From positions 1-25,419 of the forward strand of contig CBINHQ010000001.1 in the NCBI GenBank assembly GCA_966250475.1: a DNA stretch of 25,419 bases. The letters are read 5' to 3'. The notes beneath the pieces are model-generated. The model was given only the letters and a program-made list of their open reading frames with translations, had not been told where the DNA came from and did not search any database. Source of the stretch: an uncultured Chitinophagaceae bacterium. Its GTDB lineage: Bacteria > Bacteroidota > Bacteroidia > Chitinophagales > Chitinophagaceae. Shown piece by piece: positions 3,019 to 25,419 of the stretch. The first letter of the stretch is position 1, and every line of letters starts with the position of its first letter. Both the position numbers and the translations under genes were made by a program.

Positions 3019-3026
3019 CAAAGGTA
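3019..3026 (-). promoter_or_regulatory. Bacteroidota housekeeping promoter -7 box (TACCTTTG) for the peroxidase gene
   Basis: Exact TAnnTTTG consensus on the minus strand, 16 nt before the ATG at 3002. Confidence 0.7.
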
Positions 3027-3080
3027 ATTAGTTAATTAGCTAATTGACTAATTAGTTAATCGACTAATTGGCTAATTGTG
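3025..3080. repeat. TAATTRRY octamer tandem array (7 units) containing a 30-bp near-perfect palindrome
   Basis: Units TAATTAGT TAATTAGC TAATTGAC TAATTAGT TAATCGAC TAATTGGC TAATTGTG. Positions 3025-3054 are self-complementary around AGCT with one T/G mismatch. Confidence 0.95.
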
Positions 3081-4466
3081 TTCGTAGCTTCCCAGATCCG
3101 GCAGATTAATTGGTCGTGGATTTCCATCCAAATCAATTCCTACTGTGGTAATCACGCCTTTATCTATAGCGGGAGAATTATCTTTCAGCCTGAAGTTGTA
3201 GAAATTCTTCGAGACATCTATACTGTCGAATAGAGGATTTTCATTATTGATCGGCGGGTTGCCCACGATGCTGACATTAGGCGGTTGAGTCTGAACTTTC
3301 CAAAGCACGTGCTCGAATACTACATTGAATGCGGCTGCATCATCCTTATCGGCCACTACTTCATTTTCTACAATGCCATTCTCTCCCCAGAAAATGCAAT
3401 TCCTGAAGCTTGCATTCAGTGGGAATGATGAGAGTCCATCGGTGTTGCTCACCTGCAGCACAGGATCGCGGTGCGGGATGAACTGGTTTGAGATGCTTGC
3501 GACTGTGCAATGCGTGAAGTTGTAATCGCCTCCCCTGAAGAGCACTATGTTTTTTCCGCAATTGCTAACCAGGCAGTTTCTCGCGTCGATACTTGAATTT
3601 GCTGCGATGATTCCGGCATCAAAAGAATTATCAATGATGCATTCATTAAGAACGAGCTTGGGGTTGGCGTTCACCGAAGGACCAATCACTCCGATCGATT
3701 GATAGGCATTCCTGATCACGGCATAGCTCATCACATTATCGTAGCTCGTCTCCGTAAAATAGATTCCCGGCCAGGCAGCAGGGAAGTCGCGGTAAGGCTC
3801 ATCGAGGCGATCGCCGCGGAAGTAAACCCTGTCGACTGAATCCTTTTCGCCATTCACTACCAATGATCCATCCACAACTATCGGCGCATCGGCATGCAGA
3901 TAGATTCTGCATCCCTTCTCAACAGTCAATCTCGCGTTTTCCGCAATTAGCAAGTAATCGAGGATCACATAAGGAAGATCATTTGTCCAAACCTCATCCA
4001 CCTCGATCTCTTCACCTCGCAGGAAGTGCGCGTTTTGTCCCCATGCTTCTAGTTGCACCAATCTCTTGTTGCCATTGTATGCAATCTGAATGCTGTCCCT
4101 GATGATGAACGGAAGATTATCAATTGTTGGGTCAATGTTCACCTTTACAAAAACATACACGCTGTCGTTGGCTTCGATGTCGACGTTGGTGACCTCCTGC
4201 GCTGCTGTTCCATCCACATTCATTGAATAGGATGAGGAGACTCCACCCATCAGCTTTACCGATGAGAGGCGAAGCTTCTTATCATTCTCATTTACGATCT
4301 TGAAACTTTGTGTAACTGATCCCGTCTGAGTGAAGACAGTATCATACTTTAGCGTATCCACCGTAACTCGCACAATGGCATCCGGACCCGTGATGAAGGA
4401 GTCCTTCCTGCATGAAAACAGGATAAGCAGTGAAAACAACGCGGGAAGAAGAATTGCAGCCCTCAT
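3072..4466 (-). CDS. Lipoprotein with right-handed parallel beta-helix repeats and a choice-of-anchor-Q-like C-terminus
   Basis: 464 aa. Lipobox LFSC. Repetitive IRNAY/IDNSF/VSNCG beta-helix-like segments. C-terminal FRLKDNSPAIDKG...DLDGNPRP..PDLGSYE resembles the SPAIDxG...DxGAYE motif. Confidence 0.7.
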   Translation of the reverse strand: MRAAILLPALFSLLILFSCRKDSFITGPDAIVRVTVDTLKYDTVFTQTGSVTQSFKIVNENDKKLRLSSVKLMGGVSSSYSMNVDGTAAQEVTNVDIEANDSVYVFVKVNIDPTIDNLPFIIRDSIQIAYNGNKRLVQLEAWGQNAHFLRGEEIEVDEVWTNDLPYVILDYLLIAENARLTVEKGCRIYLHADAPIVVDGSLVVNGEKDSVDRVYFRGDRLDEPYRDFPAAWPGIYFTETSYDNVMSYAVIRNAYQSIGVIGPSVNANPKLVLNECIIDNSFDAGIIAANSSIDARNCLVSNCGKNIVLFRGGDYNFTHCTVASISNQFIPHRDPVLQVSNTDGLSSFPLNASFRNCIFWGENGIVENEVVADKDDAAAFNVVFEHVLWKVQTQPPNVSIVGNPPINNENPLFDSIDVSKNFYNFRLKDNSPAIDKGVITTVGIDLDGNPRPINLPDLGSYEHN

Positions 4467-4516
4467 GAATACGCGAAAATAGCCTGAAAAATCCGTTTAT
4501 TGTTTTTATGATGATG

Positions 4517-5218
4517 CTAGTTTGCTGAAGCGTAACATAGCGTGGCGAGACTGAGCGATGTATCCTTCGCCGAAAGCAATTCACTTCCGCAAGCCTCCAG
4601 CGTTGCTCCCGTGGTCACCACATCATCAACCAGCATTACATGCCTGCCTTCGATCGCCTCAGAATTCTTCAGCATGAATTTTCCATCCATGTTCTTCCAT
4701 CTTTCAATCCTTCCCTTCCTCGTTTGCGTTTCGGTGTAATGCGGTCTTATCACCACATCATGCAAAACTGGAATTCGCAACACTTCCGACATTCCTTCGC
4801 ATAGCACGGCCGCCTGATTGAATCCTCTCTTACGTTCGCGTGAGGGAAACAATGGCAATGGCACAAGCACATCAGGCGCCACCCTTTCCGCGCGGGCAAT
4901 TCGCTCGCCCATCATTCTTCCTAACTGGAAACCGAGTTCTTTATTGCCATGATACTTGAACTCATGCATCAATCTCTGCAGCAACGATGCGCTGGTGAAA
5001 TAAAATGCGGCCGATGCATATTCGAGTTGTAATCTTCCCCAGTATTTCTTCTCTACGGGATTGGAGTGAAGGAATTCGAAATGGGTCTCAGGCATCTCTC
5101 CGATGCAGGAAAGGCAAAGCATGGAATCCTCGACATGCAACTCGTTACCACAACCGGGACAAACGTCAGGGAAGACCAACCCCAGCAACGCATCCCTGAT
5201 ATCTCTCGCACTTATCAT
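4517..5218 (-). CDS. comF: ComF family (phosphoribosyltransferase-like) protein
   Basis: 233 aa. N-terminal CPGC..CLSC Zn finger, RERKRGFNQA, and the PRPP-binding loop LVDDVVTTGATL. Its ATG overlaps the radA stop (ATGA). Confidence 0.9.
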   Translation of the reverse strand: MISARDIRDALLGLVFPDVCPGCGNELHVEDSMLCLSCIGEMPETHFEFLHSNPVEKKYWGRLQLEYASAAFYFTSASLLQRLMHEFKYHGNKELGFQLGRMMGERIARAERVAPDVLVPLPLFPSRERKRGFNQAAVLCEGMSEVLRIPVLHDVVIRPHYTETQTRKGRIERWKNMDGKFMLKNSEAIEGRHVMLVDDVVTTGATLEACGSELLSAKDTSLSLATLCYASAN

Positions 5219-6612
5219 GTGAAAAGGTATTGATAGACTTCCTCCACGCGACCTACCGTAACAATCGTTATTCCGGGATGCCTTTCGGAAATCCTGGTTT
5301 TTTGTCTTGACAATCCTTTCTGGTTATATTTTGACAGAATGATCTTCTCGAATCCAAGCTTCTCCGCTTCCGCTATTCGCTGCTCAATTCTGTTAACTGC
5401 CCTAATCTCTCCACTCAATCCCACTTCGCCGGCAAAACAAATGTGCTGAGGCAGCGGCACATCTTCATAAGAAGAAAGCAACGCACAAAGCACTGCCAGG
5501 TCGATCGATGGATCTTCCACCTTCAATCCTCCCGCAATATTCAGGAAAACATCCTTAACCCCAAACTGAAATCCTCCGCGCTTTTCCAACACAGCAAGCA
5601 GTAGTTGAAGCCTGCGAAGATCGAATCCCGTAACCGTTCGCTGAGGTGTTCCATAAACAGATTGCGTGACAAGCGCCTGAACCTCGATCAGTAATGGCCT
5701 GATACCTTCGATCGTCGCGGCAATCGCAATGCCACTCAATTGCTCTTCCTTTTGCGAAATGAGAAGCTCACTCGGATTTATCACTCCTTTCATTCCCGCA
5801 TCCGTCATCTCGTAAATGCCGAGTTCCGCCGTGCTGCCGAACCTGTTCTTCAACGTGCGCAGAATTCTGTATGCATAATGCCTGTCGCCCTCAAACTGGA
5901 GCACTGCATCAACCATGTGCTCCAGAATCTTGGGGCCTGCAATGCTTCCATCCTTCGTGATGTGACCAATGAGAAACACCGGCGTGTTCGTTTCCTTCGC
6001 GAATCGCTGAAACTCCGCTGCCGACTCGCGGATCTGAGACACGCTACCCGCAGATGATTCGATGAAAGGAGTATGAAGAGTTTGAATTGAATCGACAATC
6101 ACCAGGTCCGGCTTCAGTTTTTTTATTTCCTGGAAGATGGTTTGAGTTGATGTCTCAGTGAGGAGATAGAAATTTTCATTCTTCAATCCCAGCCTGTCCG
6201 CGCGCATCTTTATCTGTTGCTCACTCTCTTCTCCACTTATAAAAAGGACTACACTGTCCTTCATCCATAATCCATTCTGCAAAAAGAGTGTCGACTTACC
6301 AATTCCCGGTTCACCTGCAACAAGTACAATGCTGCCCGGAACAATTCCTCCACCAAGTACGCGGTTCAATTCGACATCACTTGTTACTAATCTTTCTTCA
6401 CCACCCGCCGCAACTTCTGCAAGCGATACCGTTCGATTCGATCGCGCTTGCTCATGATAATCTTTCCAGCCGTTGCCGTTTTTTGGATTTTCTTTTTGAA
6501 TGAGTTCTTCCACAAAGCTGTTCCACTTCCCGCAGGATGGACATTGTCCCACCCACTTCACACTTTCAAAACCACAGTTCTGACAGAAAAATGCTGTCTT
6601 GATCTTCGCCAT
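5215..6612 (-). CDS. radA: DNA repair protein RadA/Sms
   Basis: 465 aa. CQNC..CPSC Zn finger, Walker A GEPGIGKS, Walker B IVDSIQT, KNRFG motif and Lon-like C-terminal domain. Confidence 0.97.
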   Translation of the reverse strand: MAKIKTAFFCQNCGFESVKWVGQCPSCGKWNSFVEELIQKENPKNGNGWKDYHEQARSNRTVSLAEVAAGGEERLVTSDVELNRVLGGGIVPGSIVLVAGEPGIGKSTLFLQNGLWMKDSVVLFISGEESEQQIKMRADRLGLKNENFYLLTETSTQTIFQEIKKLKPDLVIVDSIQTLHTPFIESSAGSVSQIRESAAEFQRFAKETNTPVFLIGHITKDGSIAGPKILEHMVDAVLQFEGDRHYAYRILRTLKNRFGSTAELGIYEMTDAGMKGVINPSELLISQKEEQLSGIAIAATIEGIRPLLIEVQALVTQSVYGTPQRTVTGFDLRRLQLLLAVLEKRGGFQFGVKDVFLNIAGGLKVEDPSIDLAVLCALLSSYEDVPLPQHICFAGEVGLSGEIRAVNRIEQRIAEAEKLGFEKIILSKYNQKGLSRQKTRISERHPGITIVTVGRVEEVYQYLFT

Positions 6613-6701
6613 GCGTTAAAGATAAAGGTTCAACGGAGTTGAATAAAAAGAAGAAAATTTAGCGCTGAAAGGGGTCAGGAATTGCGGTTGAACTTTAACG
6701 T

Positions 6702-6728
6702 AAAAAGGGCCAATCTTGCGATTGACCC
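6702..6728 (-). terminator. Intrinsic terminator
   Basis: Minus strand GGGTCAATC-GCAA-GATTGGCCC-TTTTT: 9-bp stem with one G.U pair, GNRA tetraloop and a 5-U tail. Confidence 0.8.
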
Positions 6729-6757
6729 CCTTACTTACTAACCCATTAAATTCTATT
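6702..6757 (-). ncRNA. Candidate small RNA (~55 nt)
   Basis: Lies between a promoter-like TTTG-N18-TAACTTAG and the terminator above, with no ORF in between. Predicted sequence approx. AGAAUUUAAUGGGUUAGUAAGUAAGGGGGUCAAUCGCAAGAUUGGCCCUUUUU. Confidence 0.45.
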
Positions 6758-6758
6758 G

Positions 6759-6788
6759 CTAAGTTACAATTCTACTCAACATTTCAAA
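6759..6788 (-). promoter_or_regulatory. Promoter-like -33/-7 pair (TTTG-N18-TAACTTAG)
   Basis: One mismatch to TAnnTTTG, with a TTTG 18 nt upstream, in an AT-rich intergenic region. Confidence 0.5.
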
Positions 6789-7037
6789 ATAAATTTTTCT
6801 TGCTGTGAATAACTTTAAGAATGTTTCAACAGCACAAACCTTGGCTTTTCAAAAAAAATTAATACCTTGTATCTTATTAATCATCAACGTGTTATGGGCA
6901 ATGATTCGCAAATTCACGAATCAATGTAAATTCTAATCTAATACTAATCTTAATGACAAAACGACTGAAAAACAGGCCTTAATCCAAATGGATAAAGATT
7001 TGTTGTAAAGATTGATAAAACTAAAAAAAATCGAAAA

Positions 7038-7727
7038 ATGACACCAGGAATCTTGATCGTTTCAATAATTTTTTTAGGCATCAGCATGGTTGTTTCCATG
7101 ATCCTGAAGGGGAAGTTCAAAAAGTACAGTAAAGTGGCCCTTTCCCATGGTTTGACTGGCCGGGAAATCGCGGAAAAGATGTTGCGGGAAAACGGCATTT
7201 TTGACGTGAAAGTCACCTCCTCCCAGGGCTTTTTGTCAGACCACTACAACCCCGCCAACAAGACTGTGAACCTGAGCCCCGAGGTCTACGACGGGATCAG
7301 CGTTTCAGCCGCGGCAGTAGCCGCCCATGAATGTGGCCATGCCGTTCAGCATGCCACTGCCTACGGACCTCTTACGATGAGGAGCAAACTGGTACCGGCC
7401 GTTCAATTCAGTTCCATGCTGGTGAACTGGGTGCTGTTGGTCGGAGTGATCATGGCCGCTTCTGGTAACCCAACTGTTCTGCTCATCGGCATCATCCTGA
7501 TGGCCATTACCGTGCTGTTCACGCTCATCACCCTTCCCGTAGAATTCGACGCCAGCAAGCGCGCACTCGCATGGTTGCAAAATACCAATGTGACCAACAC
7601 CCAGGAATACCCCCTGGCTAAGGACGCGCTGAAATGGGCCGCAACCACATACGTTGTAGCTGCATTAGCCGCTGTGGTTACATTGATTCAATACATTATG
7701 CTCTATCTTGGAAGCAGGGATGAGTAA
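7038..7727 (+). CDS. Putative neutral zinc metallopeptidase (Zn_peptidase_2 / YugP-like), membrane bound
   Basis: 229 aa. LSDHYNP, AAVAAHECGHAVQH (HExxH), LPVEFDAS.RA and AATTYV, plus N-terminal and internal TM segments. Confidence 0.92.
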   Translation: MTPGILIVSIIFLGISMVVSMILKGKFKKYSKVALSHGLTGREIAEKMLRENGIFDVKVTSSQGFLSDHYNPANKTVNLSPEVYDGISVSAAAVAAHECGHAVQHATAYGPLTMRSKLVPAVQFSSMLVNWVLLVGVIMAASGNPTVLLIGIILMAITVLFTLITLPVEFDASKRALAWLQNTNVTNTQEYPLAKDALKWAATTYVVAALAAVVTLIQYIMLYLGSRDE

Positions 7728-7768
7728 TTAATTAACTAATTAGCTAATTAGTTAATTAGTTAATTGAA
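7725..7768. repeat. TAATTRRY octamer array with a perfect 30-bp palindrome
   Basis: 7729-7758 TAATTAACTAATTAGCTAATTAGTTAATTA equals its own reverse complement. The array begins at the peptidase TAA stop (7725-7727). Confidence 0.95.
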
Positions 7769-7783
7769 TAGCACTTTGGATAA

Positions 7784-9337
7784 TCAGAGCTTGATCTCTT
7801 CGTCGTTTTGATCGAAGAATTTGTACTCGGTGAGGTGATAGTTCGTGTCTTCCGCGAGCCTGGTCTTCTGGCCAAACTTCTTATTCCATTTCGCGATCCT
7901 CGTATTCCAGGGCCAGCCCTTGGTGAGGTATGCGTACATGATCGGGTTGACGACGAGCCTGAGATTTTTATGCTTGTGCGTGATGAGGTAATTCAAATTC
8001 TTTTCGATCTCATCTTCCAAAAGAATGGTAGATGAAATCTTTCCGGTGCCGTGGCAGCTTGGGCAGATCTCCTGCGTGTTGATGTTCACCTCAGGCTTCA
8101 TGCGCTGGCGGGTAATCTGCATCAAACCGAATTTGGAGATTGGCAACACGGCGTGCTTTGCGCGGTCAGGGCTCATGAACTCTTCCATCTTCTCAACCAG
8201 CTTACGCTTGTTCTCCGGAAGTTTCATATCGATGAAGTCGGCCACGATGATGCCGCCGAGGTCGCGCAGGCGAAGTTGCCTTGCAATTTCCTCAGCCGCC
8301 TCGAGGTTTGTCTCCAGTGCGTTTTGTTCCTGATTATTGCTTACGCTCTTGTAGCCGCTGTTCACGTCGATCACGTGAAGCGCTTCGGTATGTTCGATGA
8401 TCAGGTATGCGCCGCTGTTGAGGTTGACTGTTTTTCCAAACGATGACTTCACCTGTTTGGTGATGCCGAATGAATCGAAGATGGGAGAACCGTTCTGATA
8501 AAATGAAACGATGTCGGCCTTCTCTGGCGCGATACGCTGAATGTAATTCTTTGTGTCGGTGAAGATGGTGCGGTCGTTGACAACGATCCGGTTGAAGTCC
8601 GCATTCAAAAGATCGCGCAGAATGCTTGTGGTCTTCGTTTGCTCGCTCAGGATCTTTGCCGGAGCAACTGCACCTTTCAGATTCTTTTGAATCGTCTTCC
8701 ACATTGCGACGAGCGCCGAAAGATCTTCGTGCAATTCTGCAGTATTCTTTCCTTCTGCCGCCGTACGCACGATCACTCCGAAATTCTTCGGCTTGATGGC
8801 TTCTACGATCTTTTGCAGGCGCTTCCTTTCCTCAGAAGAATGAATCTTCCTTGAAACGGCAACAATATTATTGAATGGGGTGATGACGACGAACCTGCCG
8901 GGCAATGAAATCTCACAACTCAGCCTCGGACCTTTTGCGGCGATGGGTTCTTTGAGAATTTGTACGAGGATGTGGGGCTTGCCACCGAGAACCTCGTTTA
9001 TTTTTCCTGTCTTGATGATTTCGGGTTCGATGGTGAATTTGCCGAAATCAATTCCGCTTTCACTTTTGTCGTTCATGCTCATGGCAGTGAACTTCAGGAG
9101 GGAGCGGGCGTAGGGACTTAAATCAGTATAATGTAGAAAGGCATCCTTCTCAAAGCCCACATCAACAAATGCGGCATTGAGACCGGGAATCAGCTTTTTG
9201 ACCTTACCAAGGTAGAGGTCACCAACGGCGAAGCGGGCATCGCTTTTCTCGCTATGCAACTCAACCAGCTTCCTGTTCTCCAACAAGGCGATTTCAACAC
9301 CCTGAGGCGCTGCATTAATAATAAGTTCTTTGTTCAT
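7784..9337 (-). CDS. Rne/Rng family ribonuclease (RNase E/G)
   Basis: 517 aa. S1 domain (GDLYLGKVKKLIPGLNAAFVDVG), IDVNSG, RLRDLGGIIVADFIDM, Zn-link CPSCHGTG. No long C-terminal scaffold, so RNase G-like. Confidence 0.95.
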   Translation of the reverse strand: MNKELIINAAPQGVEIALLENRKLVELHSEKSDARFAVGDLYLGKVKKLIPGLNAAFVDVGFEKDAFLHYTDLSPYARSLLKFTAMSMNDKSESGIDFGKFTIEPEIIKTGKINEVLGGKPHILVQILKEPIAAKGPRLSCEISLPGRFVVITPFNNIVAVSRKIHSSEERKRLQKIVEAIKPKNFGVIVRTAAEGKNTAELHEDLSALVAMWKTIQKNLKGAVAPAKILSEQTKTTSILRDLLNADFNRIVVNDRTIFTDTKNYIQRIAPEKADIVSFYQNGSPIFDSFGITKQVKSSFGKTVNLNSGAYLIIEHTEALHVIDVNSGYKSVSNNQEQNALETNLEAAEEIARQLRLRDLGGIIVADFIDMKLPENKRKLVEKMEEFMSPDRAKHAVLPISKFGLMQITRQRMKPEVNINTQEICPSCHGTGKISSTILLEDEIEKNLNYLITHKHKNLRLVVNPIMYAYLTKGWPWNTRIAKWNKKFGQKTRLAEDTNYHLTEYKFFDQNDEEIKL

Positions 9338-9472
9338 TACAGCTTACATAAATGATAAACCTTCGTGCTGTAAAAACTGGTTGCCGGTATACCGTACCTG
9401 TATGCGGGAGGGATAAAGTTGCAGCAGAAATTAGTGGGATGCAAACTTGTACGGCGGCGACCAGTCAAACTG

Positions 9473-9508
9473 AGTTTCTGTTCCCAGCCCCTTGCGGGAA
9501 CAGAAACT
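9473..9508 (-). other. Perfect 13-bp stem-loop between bS22 and rne/rng
   Basis: AGTTTCTGTTCCC-N10-GGGAACAGAAACT. It is not followed by a U-tract on the minus strand. Confidence 0.8.
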
Positions 9509-9523
9509 GCTTAAGAAATGGAA

Positions 9524-9619
9524 TTATTTGTTCCTCTTCTTATGACGGTTCTTTCTCAGTCTTTTTTTACGCTTATGCGTCGCAATCTTATGACGCTTTC
9601 TTTTCTTACCACAAGGCAT
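9524..9619 (-). CDS. 30S ribosomal protein bS22 (AURKAIP1/COX24/mS38-like), 31 aa
   Basis: Manual translation MPCGKKRKRHKIATHKRKKRLRKNRHKKRNK*. It matches, from recall, the Bacteroidota bS22 pattern MPxGKKRKRHK(V/I)ATHKRKKR. Below the ORF-track length cutoff. Confidence 0.9.
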   Translation of the reverse strand: MPCGKKRKRHKIATHKRKKRLRKNRHKKRNK

Positions 9620-9697
9620 ACTCAAATATTTTTTTAAACTTGTTTGTTATAATATGTTCAAAGCGAATGCGGCAGCAACGGCTGTCTTTGCCCCAGG

Positions 9698-10570
9698 CTA
9701 AAAACTCATTTTACTCAATTCCGAAATTCTCTTTTCAATTTCCATCCTGGCATCAATTCTTTGAATGTAGCGAAGGCTTTCCTTGTACATCAAGATTGCA
9801 TTCTCTTTGTCTTTTGTCCGTTCATACATGTCTGCGAGCATCAATATAGCTTCGAGGTGTGAGGGGTCGGTCTTTAATACGTTCTTCAATCTTTCGATTG
9901 CCTTATCATATTGGCCGGACACGATTGAACCTCTTGCGAGCATCATTTGCGCATAGGCATTCGTGCTGTCCTTCTCTACCACCTCTCTAATCATGGCAAT
10001 GCCTTCCATTGGGTTGTCGGAGATATTACCGAAGAGGTAAACTCCGCCAAGGCCGACCTTTGCCGAATCATTTCCAGGATTTAATTTCAAAGACCTCTCA
10101 AACAGATCCCTTGCCTGAGTCGCTCCCCATCTCCGAAGGTCCGGGTTTGGCTCCTGTTGCAGGTTATCTAAAAATAAGCGGGCAGCAAAGGTGAGGGATT
10201 TTTCGGAATTTTCCAATCTTGCTGCCTCGGCCTCGTACCAGGCATAGGGCAGAAAAATGCGGGCAGTATCGCTCCAGAAATGGGCGAGGTCGTGGTAGAC
10301 CTTCATCCGCTGCTCCGGGTTGTTGGTTTCTGACAGCGATGACTCGAGAGCCGTAACCCGCGTAAGAAGTTCAGGCTTAATCTGCCGCCTCGCCATACTC
10401 AGGATGGTATCGGTCGACATCACGCTCACTACGGAATGGTCATGACCATCATTTTCATGATGCTCCTCCGCTGAAGCCAGGGTTTTGTTTGGGGAAGTTT
10501 TTCCGAAAAAATAAATAATCGCGACAAGTACAACTGCCACGCCTACCGTTAGCCACTGGGGTTTCTTCAC
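9698..10570 (-). CDS. Tetratricopeptide repeat protein with N-terminal membrane anchor
   Basis: Likely GTG start at 10570 (VKKPQWLTVGVAVVLVAIIYFFG); the track's TTG at 10591 overlaps the promoter box. His-rich EEHHENDGHDHS segment and TPR-like helices. Confidence 0.8.
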   Translation of the reverse strand: MKKPQWLTVGVAVVLVAIIYFFGKTSPNKTLASAEEHHENDGHDHSVVSVMSTDTILSMARRQIKPELLTRVTALESSLSETNNPEQRMKVYHDLAHFWSDTARIFLPYAWYEAEAARLENSEKSLTFAARLFLDNLQQEPNPDLRRWGATQARDLFERSLKLNPGNDSAKVGLGGVYLFGNISDNPMEGIAMIREVVEKDSTNAYAQMMLARGSIVSGQYDKAIERLKNVLKTDPSHLEAILMLADMYERTKDKENAILMYKESLRYIQRIDARMEIEKRISELSKMSF

Positions 10571-10588
10571 TTGTTGTTTTTTGGAAGG

Positions 10589-10596
10589 CAAAGGTA
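10589..10596 (-). promoter_or_regulatory. -7 promoter box TACCTTTG for the TPR-bS22-rne/rng unit
   Basis: Exact TAnnTTTG, 18 nt upstream of the GTG. Confidence 0.7.
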
Positions 10597-10603
10597 CGAA
10601 GAA

Positions 10604-10666
10604 GTTGACCGATTACCGTTGACCGATTACCGTTGGCGGTTAACTGCCAACGGTCCACTATCAACT
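10604..10666. repeat. 7-bp-period tandem array (9 units) with an internal 26-bp palindrome
   Basis: GTTGACC GATTACC GTTGACC GATTACC GTTGGCG GTTAACT GCCAACG GTCCACT ATCAACT. 10629-10654 is self-complementary with one mismatch. The array abuts the HU stop. Confidence 0.9.
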
Positions 10667-10985
10667 AATCCGCGTCCTCCCCCGGCCCCGCATCAGGTTT
10701 AACTTCCTTCAGCTTCTTTACTTCAGCCACGAATTCTTTGGCAGGTTTAAAGGCAGGAATATAATGTTCCGGAATATGAACGGCTATGTTTTTCTTGATG
10801 TTACGGCCGATTTTGGCGGCTCTCTTCTTGGTAATAAAACTTCCGAAGCCGCGGATATAAATATTCTCTCCGGCGGCCAGCGTATCCTTTACCTCTTTGA
10901 ACATGGTTTCGAGTGTAACGAGTACATCCACCTTGGGAATTCCAGTCTTTTCAGATATCTGGTTGACGAGATCGGCTTTTCTCAT
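10665..10985 (-). CDS. HU/IHF family DNA-binding protein
   Basis: Likely start MRKADLVNQISEKTG at 10985 (106 aa). Motifs IRGFGSF, GRNIKK and PAFKPAK. Confidence 0.93.
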   Translation of the reverse strand: MRKADLVNQISEKTGIPKVDVLVTLETMFKEVKDTLAAGENIYIRGFGSFITKKRAAKIGRNIKKNIAVHIPEHYIPAFKPAKEFVAEVKKLKEVKPDAGPGEDAD

Positions 10986-11122: not shown

Positions 11123-12205
11123 ATGACCATTTCAGCCGCTCAAAAGACCAAATTTGTCAATTTTCTCCTCGACTGGAACCGGAGGATTAACGACCGGCCC
11201 ATGCCCTGGAAGGGAGAAAAAGATCCTTATCGCATCTGGCTCAGCGAGATAATTCTTCAGCAGACCAGGGTTGAACAGGGCCTGAATTACTACAATCGCT
11301 TCATCAAGACTTATCCCAATATCCATTCCCTCGCCGCGGTGGAGGACAATCAGGTGTTTAAATTATGGGAAGGCCTGGGTTATTATTCGCGTTGCCGGAA
11401 TCTGTTGCATACTGCACGATACATTTCATCAGAACGTAATGGAGAATTTCCCCAAACCTTTAAGGAGATCGTGAAACTAAAAGGCGTGGGTCCCTACACG
11501 GCTGCAGCGATTGCATCCTTCGCGTTCAACCTTCCTCATGCTGTGGTGGATGGCAACGTGTATCGCGTTTTGGCAAGAGCATTTGGTGTGAGTACGGCAA
11601 TGGATACAACGAATGGCAAGAAGGAATTCACATCTCTTGCCAATGAAATTCTTCCAAAGACAGAACCCGGCGTTTACAATCAGGCGATCATGGACTTCGG
11701 CGCTACGGTCTGCAAGCCATCACCAGAATGTTCAGCCTGTGGTTTCAGAGAGAATTGTGTTGCATTCAGGAATGATCAAATCGACCAACTCCCTGTGAAG
11801 ACAAAGAAGGTTTCAATAAAAAAGCGATGGTTCTACTATATGGTAATGGAACATGAAGGAAACATCGCGATCAGGCAGCGGGTGGGAAAGGACATCTGGA
11901 ATCAGCTTTTCGAATATCCAATGATTGAAGCCTCGCAGGAATTGCAGGAGCAGGATGTCATCGCACTGGCAAAGGATAAAGGATTTTTGACCCAGGAGTA
12001 TTTCAACAGTATGGGAATATCCCTTGTTCACAAGCAACAACTTTCGCATCAACTGATTCATGGAAGATTTCTTCGGATAATCCTTAAGAAAAAGCCAAAA
12101 AATTCAAACGACTGGAAATGGATTCCGGCAACCGGATTGAAGGAATACGCGTTTCCAAAGATCATAACTACATATCACAGCGAGTCCCAGACATCCAACC
12201 CTTAA
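11123..12205 (+). CDS. mutY: A/G-specific adenine glycosylase
   Basis: 360 aa. WLSEIILQQTRV, WEGLGYYSRCRNL, HhH LKGVGPYTA, VVDGNVYRV, Fe-S Cys cluster and a NUDIX-like C-terminal domain. Confidence 0.96.
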   Translation: MTISAAQKTKFVNFLLDWNRRINDRPMPWKGEKDPYRIWLSEIILQQTRVEQGLNYYNRFIKTYPNIHSLAAVEDNQVFKLWEGLGYYSRCRNLLHTARYISSERNGEFPQTFKEIVKLKGVGPYTAAAIASFAFNLPHAVVDGNVYRVLARAFGVSTAMDTTNGKKEFTSLANEILPKTEPGVYNQAIMDFGATVCKPSPECSACGFRENCVAFRNDQIDQLPVKTKKVSIKKRWFYYMVMEHEGNIAIRQRVGKDIWNQLFEYPMIEASQELQEQDVIALAKDKGFLTQEYFNSMGISLVHKQQLSHQLIHGRFLRIILKKKPKNSNDWKWIPATGLKEYAFPKIITTYHSESQTSNP

Positions 12206-12228
12206 ACCCTTAAACCTTTAAACCTAAA
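12188..12228 (+). repeat. AACCYTWA octamer array (4 units, 12197-12228) spanning the mutY stop
   Basis: AACCCTTA AACCCTTA AACCTTTA AACCTAAA. 12188-12215 is 24/28 identical to 17282-17309. Confidence 0.8.
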
Positions 12229-17312: not shown

Positions 17313-17322
17313 TCATTCCAAA

Positions 17323-18699: not shown

Positions 18700-18732
18700 A
18701 AATCCGGCGAGCTGCCAAAACAGATTCCAACA

Positions 18733-20046
18733 ATGCTTCTTTATTCTCCATACCAATCTCCCAGACTGGATTACATTGTTGATTTCATCTCTAAGGAAAT
18801 GAACCTTGAACCGATCAGGGTAACAAACTCGGTCGAAGAGTTTAAGGCTTTCGAAGGAGCAAGGATCAATTACTCAGCAGAAAGATTGGACAAGGAGATC
18901 TGGATCAAGCCATATAAGAATTTCCTCTTCGAATCAGGAATCAATCAGGTTGAGGTGGAATGCTTCAACACGAATGATCATACTGCCTTCTTCCGAACGG
19001 ATGGTGATACCGGGTTCGACATTCTTGCCGCATCCTTCTATCTGCTATCGCGATACGAAGAATATCTTCCACACTCGAAAGATGAGTACGGCAGGTATTC
19101 GCATCTGGAATCAATCGCTCACAAGGCAGGCTTTCTTCATCAGCCGCTGGTGAATATCTGGATTAAGAATCTGAAGGAACTCATCATTTCAAAATGGCCG
19201 CCTGCGGAACTGCAGAAGAACGATAGATTTACCTTCATACCAACTTACGACATTGACATCGCCTGGTCGTTCAGGCACAAAGGTCTGATCAGAAACGTTG
19301 GCGGATTTACGCGATCATTTTTCAAAGGAAACTTTGCTGAAGTAAGCCAGCGGGTTCGGGTGTTATCCGGAAAAGAGAAGGATCCATTTGAAGTGTATGA
19401 CTGGCTCAATACATTGCACGAGAAGCATGGACTGAAGCCGTATTATTTTTTCCTCGTGGCAGGAAGGAGTGGTAAGTACGATCGAAACATTTCACCCAAG
19501 AATGAAGCATTGCGTGAGCTGATCAGGCACCACATACTTCACTATCCCATCGGGATTCATCCATCTTGGAGAAGCGGGGATGAAACGAACCTGCTTCAAC
19601 GGGAAATCAAGACTCTCACTTCGATTACGGGACAGGAAGTACTTTCATCGCGTCAACATTTTATTCGGTTCACAATGCCGGAAACGTATCGCAGGCTTCT
19701 GCACCATGACATCCTCTTCGATTTCTCCATGGGTTATGGTACCACCAATGGATTCCGTGCATCGGTTGCATCGCCATTTTACTGGTATGACCTGCCTAAT
19801 GAACAACAAACAGGTTTAATGTTGTTTCCATTCTGTTTCATGGATGCGAATTCATTCTACGAACAGAAACAAACTCCCGCAGAGGCATTGGCGGAGATGA
19901 GGCGCTACTTTGATGCAGTGAAGTCTGTCGATGGCACGCTCATCATGATCTGGCATAACTCCTTCCTTGGCACGGATCCTTTGTACAAAGGATGGCGTGA
20001 GGTCTACGAAGAATTCGTTTCTTCGATAAATAAAGGAAACATGTGA
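18733..20046 (+). CDS. Polysaccharide deacetylase (CE4/NodB-like) family protein with N-terminal DUF7033-like region
   Basis: 437 aa. YLLSRYEEY, PTYDIDIA, IGIHPSW, SRQHFIRF, GFRAS, PFCFMDA, IWHN. Confidence 0.75.
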   Translation: MLLYSPYQSPRLDYIVDFISKEMNLEPIRVTNSVEEFKAFEGARINYSAERLDKEIWIKPYKNFLFESGINQVEVECFNTNDHTAFFRTDGDTGFDILAASFYLLSRYEEYLPHSKDEYGRYSHLESIAHKAGFLHQPLVNIWIKNLKELIISKWPPAELQKNDRFTFIPTYDIDIAWSFRHKGLIRNVGGFTRSFFKGNFAEVSQRVRVLSGKEKDPFEVYDWLNTLHEKHGLKPYYFFLVAGRSGKYDRNISPKNEALRELIRHHILHYPIGIHPSWRSGDETNLLQREIKTLTSITGQEVLSSRQHFIRFTMPETYRRLLHHDILFDFSMGYGTTNGFRASVASPFYWYDLPNEQQTGLMLFPFCFMDANSFYEQKQTPAEALAEMRRYFDAVKSVDGTLIMIWHNSFLGTDPLYKGWREVYEEFVSSINKGNM

Positions 20047-21069
20047 TCAAATCAGTTCTGGTTGCTCCGGCGGGGGCAGTGCGGTTCGGAATGCCTTGTT
20101 GACAATGTACACACCGAGCAGAGTGATCAATCCTCCAATTATGATATAGACCGTCATCGACTCGCTGAAGATCATCCAGCCGAGGAGGATTGCAACAATT
20201 GGATTGATGTAAGCGTAGATTGAGGTTTGTTCAGTTGGTAAATTCTGCAATGCGTACAGGTATGCAATGAACGAGATGATGGAACCGAAAACAACCAGAT
20301 AAAGTATCGAAGCCCATGCCTGCCAGGGAACTTCGCTCAACGGTACATAGTAATTTGAGTTAGGACCGTCGAGAAGTCTTGTGATGAGGAGCAATGCGAA
20401 TCCGGAGATAGTCATCTGCAATCCGAGACTGAAGTATGGATTGAAATTGAGCGCTTCCTTCTTGGTGTAAATCGTACCGAATGCCCACGTCCATGTGGCG
20501 ATGAGCGAAAGCAGGATTCCAAATCTGAAATCGGCTTTGAAAAAATCATCGAGGTGCTCGTAGAATACCACGCACACTCCCGCGAAACCCACAAAGAGTC
20601 CGATAATCGCATTTACGGGCAGTCTCTTCCTCGAAGAAAATAACCCAATCACCACAAGCCATAGCGGAAAGATCGCTCCCATGATTGAACCGAGTCCGGC
20701 AGAAATATATTGCACGCCCCAAGTGCTGAGGCCATTGCTCATGAAGAAATTAAGGAAGCTGAGTACGAGAATTGGAATCCACTCTCTCCCTTTCGGCAGA
20801 GTAGCTCCTCTTGCAAGGAAGAATATCACGTAGATGATTCCAGCGATAGCCTGCCTTGCGCCTGCAAGTTCAAGCGCAGGCATGTGCCTCACACCTTCTT
20901 TCGAGGCGACCCATGTTGTACCCCAGAAGAAACAAACGAGTGCGAGGGCAAACACAGCCTTTGTTCTTGCGCCCTTCTTGTGTATGGTAAATGGATTGAA
21001 AGCGGCGATCTTCCTCAGCGTGAAAGCTGTAGAATCGACAATGAATTTATGAAAGTCATAAAACTTCAT
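20047..21069 (-). CDS. EamA/DMT family transporter
   Basis: Likely ATG at 21069, 4 nt after the purH stop (340 aa). Contains FFWGTTW and about 10 TM segments in two EamA repeats, ending YAYINPIVAILLG. Confidence 0.9.
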   Translation of the reverse strand: MKFYDFHKFIVDSTAFTLRKIAAFNPFTIHKKGARTKAVFALALVCFFWGTTWVASKEGVRHMPALELAGARQAIAGIIYVIFFLARGATLPKGREWIPILVLSFLNFFMSNGLSTWGVQYISAGLGSIMGAIFPLWLVVIGLFSSRKRLPVNAIIGLFVGFAGVCVVFYEHLDDFFKADFRFGILLSLIATWTWAFGTIYTKKEALNFNPYFSLGLQMTISGFALLLITRLLDGPNSNYYVPLSEVPWQAWASILYLVVFGSIISFIAYLYALQNLPTEQTSIYAYINPIVAILLGWMIFSESMTVYIIIGGLITLLGVYIVNKAFRTALPPPEQPELI

Positions 21070-21073
21070 CCGG

Positions 21074-22636
21074 CTAGTGCTTGAAATGCCGCATGCCTGT
21101 AATAACCATCGCCAGTCCGTGTTGTTTGCAGTAATCAATGGAATCCTTGTCGCGAATAGAGCCTCCGGGTTGAATGAATGCGGCGATGCCGGCCTCATGC
21201 CCGAGCTTCACGCAATCATCAAAGGGGAAGAACGCATCGCTTGCCATCACAGCTCCATTTGTATCGAAACTGAATTGCTTTGCTTTTTCCACCGCCTGCC
21301 TGAGCGAATCGATTCTGCTGGTCTGGCCACATCCTTTTCCAATTAATTGCCCGTTCTTCACCAGCGCGATGGCGTTCGACTTGAGATGCTTGCAGACGAG
21401 GTTCGCGAACACGAGATCTTTCTTCTCTTGTTCAGAACTTTCCCTGCCGCCGGCTTCGGTCCATTCTGAATAATTTCCTGCGTCGATTGATTGTACCAGC
21501 GTGCCATTCAATACTGAACGATATTGGTTACGCCTTTCGGGATAGCGCTTCAGTTTAAGAATGATCCTGTTCTTCTTCGAGCGAAGTATCTCAAGCGCCT
21601 CGGCCTCGAATGAAGGCGCAATCAGCACTTCGAAGAAAATATTGTTGATGGCCTGTGCAGTGCGAATGTCAATTGCGCCGTTGCATACCAGCACGCCACC
21701 GAATGCACTCTCGGGATCACCCGCAAGCGCTGCCTCCCAGCTTGTGAAGACAGAATCACGAATGGCAATGCCGCAGACATTGGTGTGTTTGATAATGGCG
21801 AAAACTATTTCTCCACTCTTCGCTCCAGGCTCCGTTCCAAATTCGGATGCAAGCTGAATCGCAGCATCCACATCCACGAGGTTATTGTAAGAAAGATCCT
21901 TTCCATTTAACTGCTGAAACAGGTGATTGATCTCTCCATAAAACACGCCGGGTTGATGCGGATTTTCTCCATACCTCATCGGGTGCGGGAACGGAGTCGA
22001 CTCGAGGAAATATTCAGCTCCTTCGCGACTGAAATATTTGGCGATTGCCACTTCGTAATGGGCTACAATGTCGAATGCCTTTGCAGCATACGCCCTCCTC
22101 TGCTCCATGGTCGTCTGCCCATCCTGCGATCTCAGCAATGATGCCAGCGGACCATACTCAGATTTTGCTGCCACCACGAGCACATCCGAGAAATTCTTCG
22201 CCGCGCCACGAATCATCGAAGGACCACCGATGTCGATCTTCTCGATGATGGCAGATTCGTTGATCTCTCCTCCGGATGCAGCGAGTTGTTCCTGTTCCTT
22301 TAAAGTTTCTTCGAAGGGATAGAGATCCACAATCACGAGGTCGATTGCGGGAATTTTGAATTCTTCCATCTCCTTAACATCGGTTTCGTTGTCTCTCCTT
22401 CCGAGAATGCCACCGAATACAGAAGGATGAAGCGTCTTCACCCTGCCGCCAAGAATGGAAGGATACCCGGTAACACTCTCCACCGGAACGCAGCTCACGC
22501 CGAGTTTCTCGATGAATTTCTGTGTGCCTCCGGTTGAATAGATCGTCACTCCCTGGCGGGACAGTTCAGAGACAATTTCTTCCAGGCCATCCTTATAAAA
22601 GACGGAAATGAGGGCGGAGCGAATCTTCTTGTTCAT
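21074..22636 (-). CDS. purH: Bifunctional AICAR transformylase / IMP cyclohydrolase
   Basis: 520 aa. ALISVFYKDG, STGGT, GGRVKTLHP, IDIGGPSMIRGAAKN, RYGENPHQ, LSYNNLVD, MASDAFFPF, QPGGSIRD, GMRHFKH. Confidence 0.98.
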   Translation of the reverse strand: MNKKIRSALISVFYKDGLEEIVSELSRQGVTIYSTGGTQKFIEKLGVSCVPVESVTGYPSILGGRVKTLHPSVFGGILGRRDNETDVKEMEEFKIPAIDLVIVDLYPFEETLKEQEQLAASGGEINESAIIEKIDIGGPSMIRGAAKNFSDVLVVAAKSEYGPLASLLRSQDGQTTMEQRRAYAAKAFDIVAHYEVAIAKYFSREGAEYFLESTPFPHPMRYGENPHQPGVFYGEINHLFQQLNGKDLSYNNLVDVDAAIQLASEFGTEPGAKSGEIVFAIIKHTNVCGIAIRDSVFTSWEAALAGDPESAFGGVLVCNGAIDIRTAQAINNIFFEVLIAPSFEAEALEILRSKKNRIILKLKRYPERRNQYRSVLNGTLVQSIDAGNYSEWTEAGGRESSEQEKKDLVFANLVCKHLKSNAIALVKNGQLIGKGCGQTSRIDSLRQAVEKAKQFSFDTNGAVMASDAFFPFDDCVKLGHEAGIAAFIQPGGSIRDKDSIDYCKQHGLAMVITGMRHFKH

Positions 22637-22673
22637 AGCGTGAAAATTGAGAGCAGGCAGTCGTTAAGGAGGG

Positions 22674-22681
22674 CAAAACTA
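22674..22681 (-). promoter_or_regulatory. -7 promoter box TAGTTTTG for purH-eamA
   Basis: Exact TAnnTTTG, 37 nt before the purH ATG and immediately after the comEC stop. Confidence 0.6.
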
Positions 22682-22683
22682 AA

Positions 22684-24783
22684 TCAATTCAGGTTCATCA
22701 CAAAGGCTCCATTCTTACTCACATCATGCCAGGGGATGCCCAATGAGTCGCAATCCCGCTTCCAGTAAGCCATTCGCCATGCCGGAACCGAACTGTCGAA
22801 GACTATTTGTCGAATATCGATCATCTCCGAGAGCTTCGTAATGTAGAGCCTCGGGCTTCGGGAGAGAATCATGAGGTCTATGATAGTCTTTTCCTCCTCC
22901 GGTTCTACCGCCATTGCTTCGTTCACCAACATTATCCGTTTGTCGCCCATTCGCCATGTTTTGTTTCCCGAAGTATCATTGACTCCACCCAATGTTCTCG
23001 CTAGCGTACGCGAAGGCTTGAGATGAAAGCTGCTGATGAAGGGATCGCTGAGACAGGCAGAATCGCCAACGAAGAAATGCGAACGTGCGATAAAGAAATC
23101 CATTGCAGAATGCCTAGGAATATTGTACACAACCACGCAGCGCTGCTCACCTCGCTCGAAAAATGACCACGAGCGCAATGCAAAGAATGCAACAGCAGTG
23201 AGCAGGAACAGCGCGAAATTCATCCTGCTCTTCCTCATCAGCCATAATGCGACGAACATGATGATTGCATACAACAGAATTGCCTGAATCAGACTTATCT
23301 GCAAACCCTCCCAGACTGAAGAAGGCAACATTTCGATGAGCGACACATATTCATTCATCATCCTGATCATCCACGACAGAAGTTTACCTAAAAGCCCGGA
23401 AGCTGAAGAGAGAAATTCAAGACTTCCGAGTGCACAAAGCAGGATCTCCCCCAACACAATCGCGCTGGAAAGAGGAACAGCAACGATGTTTGTCAGGATG
23501 AAATAATTTTGAAACTTGTGAAAATGATAAATGCTTACCGGCAAGGTGAGTATTTGCGCTGCAATCGTGACTGCATTCAACTTCCATACATTGTCGAGCA
23601 GTTTGTTCTTAACATAGAAAAGATTGTAAATGGGCTTCATGAAGATGATGATGCTCAACACAGCGATGTACGAGAGTTGAAAGCCCGCATCCCAAAGCCA
23701 GAATGGATTGTAGCATAGCAAACCAAATGCAGAAAAAGCCATCGTATTGTAGATGGAACTTTTTCTGCTAAACGTCTTCCCCAATACGATGCAGGTGAAC
23801 ATTACAGCGGACCTCATTACAGAAGGCGATGCACCTGCGAGCAGGCTGAAGCCCCAGAGTCCTGCAATGACGAGCAACGGCTGCATCCATCTTGTCTGCT
23901 TTTTCCTTCCAAGCGGTTTCAGCAACAGCATCAGCACTGCATAGATGAGTCCGATGTGTAAACCAGAGATGGCAATCACATGCACCACTCCTGTGTTGGA
24001 GTATGATTGTATGAGATCTTTGTCCAGGTCGTTCTTATAGCCGATCAACAAAGCCTCGGCCAGACCACTTTCCTTTTCTCCGCTGATAAATTTTCGCAGA
24101 ACCGATAGCACATAATTTCTGGTACTCTCCAGTAGTCGCCCAATGAAAGTTGTACGATTATCGCTCAGTCTTACAAATTCGCCTTCCTTCAAATAAATCT
24201 GATGAGTGATGCCCTGGAAGAGACAATATCGTTCGTAGTCAAACCCACCGGGATTGCCGGAGTTGCGAATCTCCTGCAAGGGCTTGCGAAACGCGATCAT
24301 GGATCCATATTGGAGACCCGGTTGCAAGGAATCCTTTCCAAAATAAATGATGATGCTTCCCTTAACCTGCAGCGTATCATCATCCCTGATCACAGCAATT
24401 ACACTTGCGTTTGCCTTAAAGGATTTCGATTTGGGAACCAGGGATTCTTCAAGCGAAACGATCAACACATCATCCTTGATAACCTGTTGATGGATCGATG
24501 CAGGATCGTTGGTGATTGTATTGAAATGCGTCAAGATTCCGCCAATTGCTGCAATGGCCGAATAAGCCATCAGGCCTGCTATCCATCCCCGCTTAAACTT
24601 TTCAAAATAGGGCAGCAGGAAGAAGAAAAAGAAAAGTAAAAGAGAGATCGAACCAAGATAAATCCAGAATGTGAGTTTGATTTCAAGATACCAATGCAGC
24701 ACAATGCCAATGGCAAGCGAAGCGAAGAGTCCAAGAAAGGGCGATCGCTTTCTGAAATAGGAACGGCCATCACGCATCTGCAT
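22684..24783 (-). CDS. comEC: ComEC/Rec2 family competence protein
   Basis: 699 aa. DUF4131-like region (NPGGFDY), HVIAISGLHIG, PSVMRSAVM, DAGFQLSY and multiple TMs. Confidence 0.93.
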   Translation of the reverse strand: MQMRDGRSYFRKRSPFLGLFASLAIGIVLHWYLEIKLTFWIYLGSISLLLFFFFFLLPYFEKFKRGWIAGLMAYSAIAAIGGILTHFNTITNDPASIHQQVIKDDVLIVSLEESLVPKSKSFKANASVIAVIRDDDTLQVKGSIIIYFGKDSLQPGLQYGSMIAFRKPLQEIRNSGNPGGFDYERYCLFQGITHQIYLKEGEFVRLSDNRTTFIGRLLESTRNYVLSVLRKFISGEKESGLAEALLIGYKNDLDKDLIQSYSNTGVVHVIAISGLHIGLIYAVLMLLLKPLGRKKQTRWMQPLLVIAGLWGFSLLAGASPSVMRSAVMFTCIVLGKTFSRKSSIYNTMAFSAFGLLCYNPFWLWDAGFQLSYIAVLSIIIFMKPIYNLFYVKNKLLDNVWKLNAVTIAAQILTLPVSIYHFHKFQNYFILTNIVAVPLSSAIVLGEILLCALGSLEFLSSASGLLGKLLSWMIRMMNEYVSLIEMLPSSVWEGLQISLIQAILLYAIIMFVALWLMRKSRMNFALFLLTAVAFFALRSWSFFERGEQRCVVVYNIPRHSAMDFFIARSHFFVGDSACLSDPFISSFHLKPSRTLARTLGGVNDTSGNKTWRMGDKRIMLVNEAMAVEPEEEKTIIDLMILSRSPRLYITKLSEMIDIRQIVFDSSVPAWRMAYWKRDCDSLGIPWHDVSKNGAFVMNLN

Positions 24784-24915
24784 TTTTAATGCAAGGAAGA
24801 TTCAATTTCCAGACTTGCAAGGGGAAAATCAGCCGGACATCGCGTTTTTTTAGCGTGATGCTTCCGTGGAAAGACGGATAAAGTTTCGAAAGAATGTCTT
24901 ATAAGATCAATTAGC

Positions 24916-25386
24916 TTACTCCAGCAATTTCTTCAGATAGGCGATCTGTCCTGCGTGGTAAATGTGATGCTGGATGAGACCGTTGAGCAGGTATTTGAAA
25001 TCGTATTCGCGGTAATCGACCTTCTCGCTAAGGAACGCATCATCCTTTGTCTTCAGCAGTTCGATTAATTCCTGATTGGTTGCGATGAATGCGGAGAGTC
25101 CTTCTTCCCATCCATGAATCATTGGATCGATCTCGCGCCAATCGAGTTTCTCAAATGCCGCGAGGTCGTTGATCTTATCCTTCTGCACACGTTTCAAAGT
25201 GAATTCCGTCCAGGTAAGCATGTGATAGATGAGATCAACAAGAGAATGTGAAGCTTCATTCGGCTTCACAGAAGCATACCCTGCATCGATGGACCGTAGA
25301 AGCCTGTAGACCGGTTGGCCGTACCAAGGCTCTCCATCCAACACATCCTCCAATGACTTAATTATTACTGACAACTCTGCCTTCAT
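24916..25386 (-). CDS. DinB family protein
   Basis: 156 aa. GEPWYG, SHSLVDLIYHMLTW and GLIQHHIYHAGQI metal-binding helix pattern. Confidence 0.88.
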   Translation of the reverse strand: MKAELSVIIKSLEDVLDGEPWYGQPVYRLLRSIDAGYASVKPNEASHSLVDLIYHMLTWTEFTLKRVQKDKINDLAAFEKLDWREIDPMIHGWEEGLSAFIATNQELIELLKTKDDAFLSEKVDYREYDFKYLLNGLIQHHIYHAGQIAYLKKLLE

Positions 25387-25419
25387 TATCTAATTATCTA
25401 ATTAACTAATTAGCTAATT
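25383..25419. repeat. TAATTRRY octamer array, truncated by the window end
   Basis: TCATTATC TAATTATC TAATTAAC TAATTAGC TAATT. 25399-25419 is identical to 7729-7749 (21/21). Confidence 0.9.

Follow-up and report, generated by a model that had tools for sequence, protein, structure and literature searches.

The window analysed here is the whole of a 25,419-nucleotide contig (C1, CBINHQ010000001.1) from an uncultured Chitinophagaceae bacterium, whose metagenome-assembled genome (MAG; G000, the host genome below) comprises 2.98 Mb in 623 contigs, is 92% complete and has 47% G+C. The window contains three arrays of a palindromic octamer beside ordinary housekeeping genes (Table 1), and these are members of a family of about 400 arrays that, in the host genome, lie on or directly behind the stop codons of genes. 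We conclude that the arrays, whose unit is TAATTARY, are a real and undescribed family within a known and poorly understood class of repeats.

An initial annotation, made from the letters of the window, had reported three copies at 3025, 7729 and 25399 that share the core AATTAGCTAATT. All three are present, with exact cores at 3034, 7738 and 25408, and one pair is identical over 21 bp, as reported (7729-7749 and 25399-25419). When one mismatch was allowed, the core matched ten times in the window against 0.06 expected from shuffles, and Tandem Repeats Finder (TRF) placed period-8 arrays at 3025-3078, 7728-7765 and 25385-25419. Each array does touch the boundary of a coding sequence (CDS): the TAG of a gene for a 464-amino-acid (aa) protein, the TAA of a peptidase gene, and the start codon of a DinB-like gene, 5 nt upstream of which array 3 begins. 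The annotation was also right that period-8 units place stop codons in all six frames, as TAA at 7729, 7737 and 7745 covers all three frames of the plus strand and TTA at 7732, 7740 and 7748 serves the minus strand. The end of the 464-aa gene on the minus strand, its final two codons and the TAG at 3072-3074, lies within the terminal units of array 1, and this array folds into a hairpin of -20.3 kcal/mol (plus strand, z -5.1). Array 2 includes a perfect 30-bp palindrome with AGCT at its centre (7729-7758) and folds at -17.4 kcal/mol (z -6.3).

Table 1 Octamer arrays and adjoining genes in the window
Feature	Position	Strand	Description
Array 1	3025-3080		Seven TAATTNNN units, which fill the space from the 464-aa gene to the glutathione peroxidase gene (site 1)
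Array 2	7725-7768		Peptidase TAA (7725-7727) as a half-unit, then five units (site 2)
Array 3	25391-25419		At least 3.6 units; the contig end cuts the array
464-aa gene	3072-4466	-	Flanks array 1
Spacer	3003-3024	-	Short stretch separating array 1 from the glutathione peroxidase start codon
Glutathione peroxidase (GPx) gene	2484-3002	-	Flanks array 1
Zn-peptidase gene	7038-7727	+	Convergent with the RNase E/G gene around array 2
RNase E/G (RNase G) gene	7784-9337	-	Convergent with the Zn-peptidase gene around array 2
DinB-family gene	24916-25386	-	Start codon beside array 3

A self-complementary octamer at about 400 loci

Unless a relative is named, the counts that follow refer to the host genome. 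Markov models of orders 1-4 predict 0.07-1.3 occurrences of the 12-mer core, and 405 are present, which confirms the proposed dispersed family above the AT-rich background, and its octamers are the commonest 8-mers of the genome. Chaining TAATT at a spacing of 8 yields about 403 arrays of at least three units; spacings of 6, 7, 9 and 10 yield essentially no TAATT chains, so 8 alone works. The unit is a self-complementary octamer repeated head-to-tail, and arrays have 3-7 units, usually 4-5, with a median length of 32-40 bp. Positions 1-5 (TAATT) are conserved at 94-100%, position 6 is A in 80% of units, and positions 7-8 are a free purine-pyrimidine pair (GC 369, GT 342, AC 282, AT 123). The earlier description of the family as AGCT-centred is therefore apt for part of it; for the whole, the unit is TAATTA plus a variable purine-pyrimidine pair.

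The distribution of unit counts is humped at 4-5 units and has a sharp ceiling near 48 bp. End logos show one degenerate terminal unit (CAATTAAC or TAATG) and random sequence beyond it. There are 380 distinct sequences among 399 arrays, the highest multiplicity being 4 compared with 2.2 (maximum 5) in shuffles, and no master sequence or large set of identical copies was found among the 399. The order of units is not random: AAC variants lie to the left, AGC in the middle and AGT to the right, and direct AAC-AGT and AGT-AAC steps are avoided. This order is that of an asymmetric unit arranged as two arms mirrored about a central AGCT, and it also places TAA as the outermost stop on either strand that enters the array; it may reflect either property. 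We also considered whether the arrays cause assembly breaks, and rejected this, given that an array lies at 16 of the 1,246 contig ends.

Arrays begin where genes end

To describe placement we used our own rough gene map, in which long open reading frames (ORFs) were scored by codon usage (2,598 genes, 87% coding). None of the 403 arrays lies wholly within a predicted CDS. Arrays occupy 102 of 292 convergent gaps (35%), 163 of 1,327 tandem gaps (12%) and 42 of 356 divergent gaps (12%), and between convergent genes the array is approximately the entire gap (median 36-40 nt). The bias to gene boundaries suspected from three copies is thus very strong once distances to stops and starts are tabulated: TAATT arrays lie at a median of -3 nt from the adjacent gene 3' end, and arrays of the other repeat families of the same genome at +81 nt. 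Because those other families do not abut stops, the stop-codon placement rule is specific to the TAATT family.

The stop codon is in register with the array at 292 of the 372 gene 3' ends (78%) that lie within 60 nt of one, and at 124 of these 372 the first TAA of the first unit itself serves as the stop. TAA makes up 271 of the 372 array-adjacent stops (73%), against 54% genome-wide. In tandem gaps the array lies at a median of -1 nt from the upstream stop and about 31-33 nt from the next start, and a quarter of tandem-site arrays come within 8 nt of the next start codon.

At site 1 the last unit of the array runs into TACCTTTG, which matches the Bacteroidota -7 promoter box TAnnTTTG and is a putative -7 box of the GPx gene, a match at the level of sequence. 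A TAnnTTTG match 5' of the GPx gene is kept in three lineages (window 3003-3030; L203:3715-3742; L207:3710-3746, L-numbers denoting metagenome relatives or strains), and in the host genome and its sister species the box abuts a repeat array, which then occupies the -33 region. The idea that arrays are a general wedge between a stop and the -7 box of the next gene holds at site 1 and was rejected as a rule, with a box in 34 of 163 tandem arrays compared with a background of 19%.

Array turnover among strains and species

The site-1 gap measures 69 nt in four samples and 45 nt in two others of the same species. The two alleles have 7 and 4 units, a difference of exactly three units, and the flanking gene is 99.1-99.4% identical; between the host genome and strain L202, all other compared gaps are identical.

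A sister organism shares 95% aa identity with the host in RNase G, and 74% aa and 68% nucleotide identity in the 464-aa protein and its gene. At its site 1 the stop is directly followed by octamers again, of another palindromic unit (TAGTYAAC type), in an array that is barely structured (z -1.5); at its site 2 a diverged array with a perfect 13-bp stem takes up all 32 nt from one stop to the other. The units of these orthologous arrays are TAGTYAAC, CAATTAAC and GAATTGGT. Because octamer arrays are found at both orthologous sites in the sister, the arrays predate the split from the sister species, with position fixed and content changing fast. The comparison of filled and empty sites that the initial annotation had proposed thus yielded retained, diverged arrays at both sites in the sister; the strains vary solely in unit number.

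Further out, the site-1 array is absent in one more distant relative. At site 2, the metagenome relative L104 (87% identity) retains a decayed array with a canonical terminator behind it, and nearly all other relatives have a canonical terminator with a GC hairpin and T-tract. In another metagenome relative, L119 (69% peptidase identity), a GC-rich GGAGGCCGGAGTAGGGA-like tandem array comes right after the same peptidase stop (903-1030).

Hairpins, terminators and mobility

Using our own strict detector, we found a canonical terminator after 3% of array-bearing gene ends and after 10-11% of array-free ends. No terminator-like site was detected in the two array-bearing gaps of the window; the stems of the arrays are AT-only, and no T enrichment follows the arrays. 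A genome-wide loss of canonical terminators was rejected, as their density of 3.6 per 10 kb falls within the 0.5-8 of relatives.

The arrays fold at a median of -11 kcal/mol, compared with -3.5 in shuffles, and convergent-site arrays make slightly better hairpins than tandem-site arrays (p=0.002). Selection at the RNA level was rejected, however, with sense and antisense folds equal (n=163, p=0.65), and compensatory covariation for perfect hairpins is weak, with purine-pyrimidine (R/Y) mirror pairs near independence. Mirror pairs of the A:C and G:T kinds (216 vs 214) are about as common as Watson-Crick pairs, and the palindromy therefore comes mainly from the self-complementary unit. Taken together, the arrays fit a DNA-level element in the terminator slot, possibly serving as a gene-end hairpin, rather than a dedicated RNA terminator.

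The initial annotation had raised a propagating element as one possibility, and we found no positive evidence for it. A search for PF01797, the Y1 transposase family that includes the REP-associated tyrosine transposases (RAYT; REP, repetitive extragenic palindrome), gave no match in the host genome while positive controls matched, an absence that is unproven given 92% completeness. No multi-copy insertion sequence (IS)-like genes were found, none having more than three paralogues, although this is weak evidence because MAGs often lose IS elements. End logos revealed no GTAG or CGTC end tag, terminal inverted repeat (TIR), target duplication or conserved flank at array ends. Two repair defects were considered as causes: loss of mismatch repair was rejected, with MutS and MutL both present, and loss of the hairpin nuclease SbcD was non-discriminating, since its C-terminal domain went undetected in the host and also in 24 of 25 relatives.

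Occurrence outside the host genome

A 15-mer of the family matches 296 times in the host genome and 0-2 times in each of 30 relatives, and (TARY)6 matches 1,102 times in the host compared with 0-6 in 400 genomes (150 genera of Chitinophagaceae). Two perfect AGC units occur in 5 of 400 Bacteroidota genomes, all five in the host's order. A one-genome-per-species scan returned at least 99 stretches; among the matches listed, 40 are simple runs of (TAAT)n, many more are (TAATTAGT)n in a single direction, and the AGC-containing type is from Bacteroidota in 22 of the 23 matches listed with a taxon. The AGCT-centred type is thus almost limited to Chitinophagales and a small number of other Bacteroidota. 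We rejected a sporadic occurrence in many phyla, since degenerate-pattern matches were mostly (TAAT)n or (TAATTAGT)n after reclassification, and also a phage vector: a perfect (TAATTAGC)3 was found in one viral contig only, and most degenerate viral matches were again of these two simple kinds.

Three MAGs (a Ginsengibacter, a Chitinophagaceae and a Sphingobacteriales) each have 27-36 two-unit matches, and a reversed control gave zero. Among isolated arrays in other genera, 6 of 14 lie at -3 or -1 nt from a TAA stop and 3 more at 7-14 nt.

Other repeat families of the host genome

The initial annotation did not perceive that this genome holds many families of tandem repeats, of which TAATTARY is the largest. 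By TRF, short tandem arrays make up 1.8% of the sequence, about 1,314 of them after redundancy is removed, and they fall into many families whose period is 7, 8 or 10 (CTCATCY, GTTGACC, AACCCTTA/AACCTTTA, CAAATTTT, ATCATAAC and others); the sampled relatives have few such arrays. In the host genome the non-palindromic families are not biased in orientation with respect to transcription, and mirrored arms were rejected as a rule for them, neighbours being mostly in the same orientation.

A landscape resembling the short tandemly repeated repetitive (STRR) sequences of cyanobacteria is visible in the window itself. At 10604-10666, between the stop of an HU gene and the next gene, there are two exact copies of the 14-mer GTTGACCGATTACC and, after them, an arm mirrored about GTTAAC, an arrangement that is seen in few arrays of the non-palindromic families. 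A MutY-like ORF (11123-12205) ends within an AACCCTTA octamer array at 12197-12224, from which it takes its last codons and stop. Elsewhere, CTCATCY arrays (C30:1178-1264, C182:3615-3685, C389:43-102, C17:11985-12040) have a conserved flank resembling TCTTCGAnnTnAAGACC and often adjoin ACGGTCA arrays, which suggests a longer composite element with internal tandem repeats, similar to a miniature inverted-repeat transposable element (MITE). A longer dispersed repeat of at least 18 copies, mostly near contig ends (C44:218-290, C84:4407-4480, C185:1-65, C69:8560-8694), consists of CACGGATTTG, a 10-mer array (ATCATAAC/AAATCATAAG) and CCGCG. Outside arrays CTAG is strongly depleted (observed/expected 0.38); restriction avoidance of AGCT or AATT there was rejected, with unremarkable ratios of 0.86 and 1.01.

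Relation to described repeats

Rfam holds no family matching TAATTARY arrays and the motif string was not found in the searchable literature, so that the family can be called undescribed as the initial annotation had supposed; it is not, however, a wholly new kind of object, in that it combines features of long simple-sequence repeats with REP-like placement. TAACTGA intergenic direct repeats have been described from marine Beggiatoaceae, some Cyanobacteria and five Bacteroidetes (MacGregor 2015, PMC4679880). They are directional heptamers in sets of 2-6 copies, with about 170 sets per genome, stop-rich, almost wholly intergenic, patchy in distribution and mostly just upstream of start codons, and have no known mechanism (PMC4679880). 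Our arrays resemble them as short intergenic tandem sets of a stop-rich 7-8-nt unit with patchy spread and whole-unit differences between strains, and differ in having a self-complementary, strand-symmetric octamer that is located on stop codons and carries stops in six frames rather than three.

Cyanobacterial STRR heptamers and other long simple-sequence repeats form dispersed intergenic arrays of 5-11-nt units, with several families per genome (Mrazek et al. 2007 as cited in PMC4679880; Rehm et al. 2015, PMC4692102). The likeness lies in head-to-tail units of 5-11 nt at about 400 dispersed intergenic loci and several families coexisting, and STRR proper differ in being heptamers of heterocystous cyanobacteria, as opposed to an octamer in a Chitinophagaceae host with a self-complementary unit and tight abutment on stops. 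The change of whole units between close strains (7 vs 4 units, six samples) is a further likeness to long simple-sequence repeats.

REPs, together with bacterial interspersed mosaic elements (BIMEs) and REP doublets forming hairpins (REPINs), are associated with RAYT, bear a GTAG or CGTC tag at one end, and can donate a stop to the flanking ORF through the REP end (PMC3733652, PMC3116915). The arrays share with them a 20-40-bp palindrome in hundreds of copies, gene-end and convergent placement, and stop donation, yet lack the tag, the RAYT, the doublet structure and a master sequence, and consist of tandem octamers with an AT-only stem. Unlike MITEs, they have nothing conserved beyond the array, no TIRs around a body and no target-site duplications. 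As with intrinsic terminators, a hairpin is found at the gene 3' end, in the slot of the relatives' terminators, but the GC-rich stem and U-tract are missing and the array often directly precedes the next start.

Origin and role of the arrays

One explanation for these results, to which we assign a probability of about 0.5, is that the sites are lineage-amplified long simple-sequence repeats of an STRR- or REP-like kind that occupy a gene-end niche, are maintained by slippage, and possibly stand in for a gene-end hairpin. Acting at the DNA level, arrays would take up the space without promoters that comes immediately after a stop codon. Since its unit has a stop in each of the six frames, an array cannot exist inside a gene and ends any ORF reaching it, which explains why arrays abut coding sequence and donate the stop. 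Whole units are gained and lost by slippage, as seen between strains, and arrays persist at the same gene junction across species divergence while their units drift or homogenise, as seen at two sites; they take the slot held in relatives by a canonical terminator hairpin. The arrays would then be self-renewing, near-neutral passengers. At many convergent pairs their hairpin may have assumed the part of a gene-end hairpin, in forming the 3' end of transcripts or in insulation. As to their spread to about 400 sites, our guess would be template switching or recombination seeded by TAA/TAG-TAATT microhomology at stops.

This interpretation must be made cautiously, as several observations weigh against it. 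Slippage alone cannot put one octamer at 400 loci, and a TAATTA core conserved at 94-100% over positions 1-5, with positions 7-8 free, resembles sequence-specific constraint, for example from a protein site, more than neutral drift. Unit counts are humped and not geometric, the order of units is strongly non-random, and the survival of arrays at the two sites compared, in a species whose flanking gene is only 68% identical, is a hint of selection. Transcription has to pass through the quarter of tandem-site arrays that come within 8 nt of the next start, an argument against a strong terminator role, and overall terminator density in the host genome is not reduced.

One may postulate instead that the host itself uses the arrays as a bidirectional gene-end hairpin, the AU-only palindrome serving as a factor-dependent terminator, processing site or 3'-end stabiliser that replaces intrinsic terminators, mainly between convergent genes. 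The occupation of 35% of convergent gaps, where the array is the whole gap (median 36 nt), would be explained in this way, as would the bidirectional terminators of similar size in the same slots in relatives, the 3-4 fold scarcity of canonical terminators at array-bearing ends, fold z-scores of -5 to -6 and the slightly better folding of convergent-site arrays (p=0.002); the sister's site-2 array keeps its perfect 13-bp stem despite other sequence, and L104, which has a canonical terminator, has a decayed array. On the other hand, the stem is not GC-rich and no T-tract follows, the sense-strand G.U signature is absent, half of the R/Y mirror pairs are mismatched, read-through is required at 25% of tandem-site arrays, 42 arrays lie in divergent gaps, and the sister's site-1 array is barely structured; overall we regard such a host function as fairly unlikely. 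A more specialised function, a selected six-frame translational stop cassette acting as fail-safe stop and frame insulator at gene boundaries, seems to us very improbable. Six-frame stops do fall within 11-16 nt, TAA is over-represented among array-adjacent stops (73% vs 54%), and outer units tend to the TAA-only variant on the strand entering the array, but one or two units would be enough where arrays have 4-5, any stop-carrying repeat must end ORFs so that donation needs no selection, 42 arrays are found in divergent gaps, and relatives manage without arrays.

The hundreds of copies in one lineage could also be a selfish miniature element of the REP/REPIN or MITE kind, copied in trans by an enzyme that falls outside the 92%-complete assembly or belongs to an unrecognised family. 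The size (32-40 bp) and palindromy of the arrays, their gene-end placement and stop donation in the manner of GTAG REPs, a patchy low-copy presence in other Chitinophagales and Sphingobacteriales MAGs, and isolated arrays in other genera that also begin on TAA stops are all consistent with this. We nonetheless consider it unlikely, given the lack of a Y1_Tnp/RAYT match with working controls, of multi-copy transposase-like genes, and of a GTAG/CGTC tag, TIRs, target duplication or conserved flank, as well as 380 of 399 arrays being unique with no master sequence, positions being conserved between species, and strains varying in unit number only. The arrays might also be read by a protein that recognises TAATTA every 8 bp, whether a nucleoid-associated protein, a gyrase-like enzyme as at BIMEs or a lineage-specific regulator. 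A nearly invariant TAATTA beside a variable RY pair, full strand symmetry of the family, enrichment where convergent transcription meets, and an HU gene in the window would suit such a protein, although HU is not sequence-specific; no candidate protein was identified, the sister's TAGTYAAC, CAATTAAC and GAATTGGT units would break a fixed site, and a three-unit loss between strains is apparently tolerated, which makes a binding array distinctly unlikely in our view. The selected gene-boundary insulator and the nucleoid-protein site suggested in the initial annotation are likewise guesses at this stage. Amplified simple-sequence repeats in a gene-end niche remain the reading that we prefer.

Families of dispersed tandem repeats with 7-8-nt units, among them STRR and TAACTGA, were recognised decades ago, yet neither a mechanism nor a function has been assigned to them. 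The host genome offers an unusually clean case, with one self-complementary unit at about 400 loci, near-absolute placement on stop codons, slippage between strains, arrays in a sister species and terminators in outgroups. In practical terms, arrays donate last codons and stops, so ORF ends are distorted and variable among strains, which is relevant to MAG annotation and strain typing. The case raises the questions of how a repeat spreads without a recognisable transposase and whether an AU-only repeat hairpin can take the place of an intrinsic terminator. A bolder proposal, which we consider unlikely, is that Chitinophagales, and perhaps Bacteroidota, possess an undescribed process, be it a dedicated enzyme or a link to the termination of translation or of transcription, that builds or places palindromic octamer arrays exactly at stops, and that the arrays then serve as a second, AU-only bidirectional gene-end signal that has displaced intrinsic terminators in this lineage. 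Regardless, the seeding of one unit at stop codons is the part most worth pursuing.

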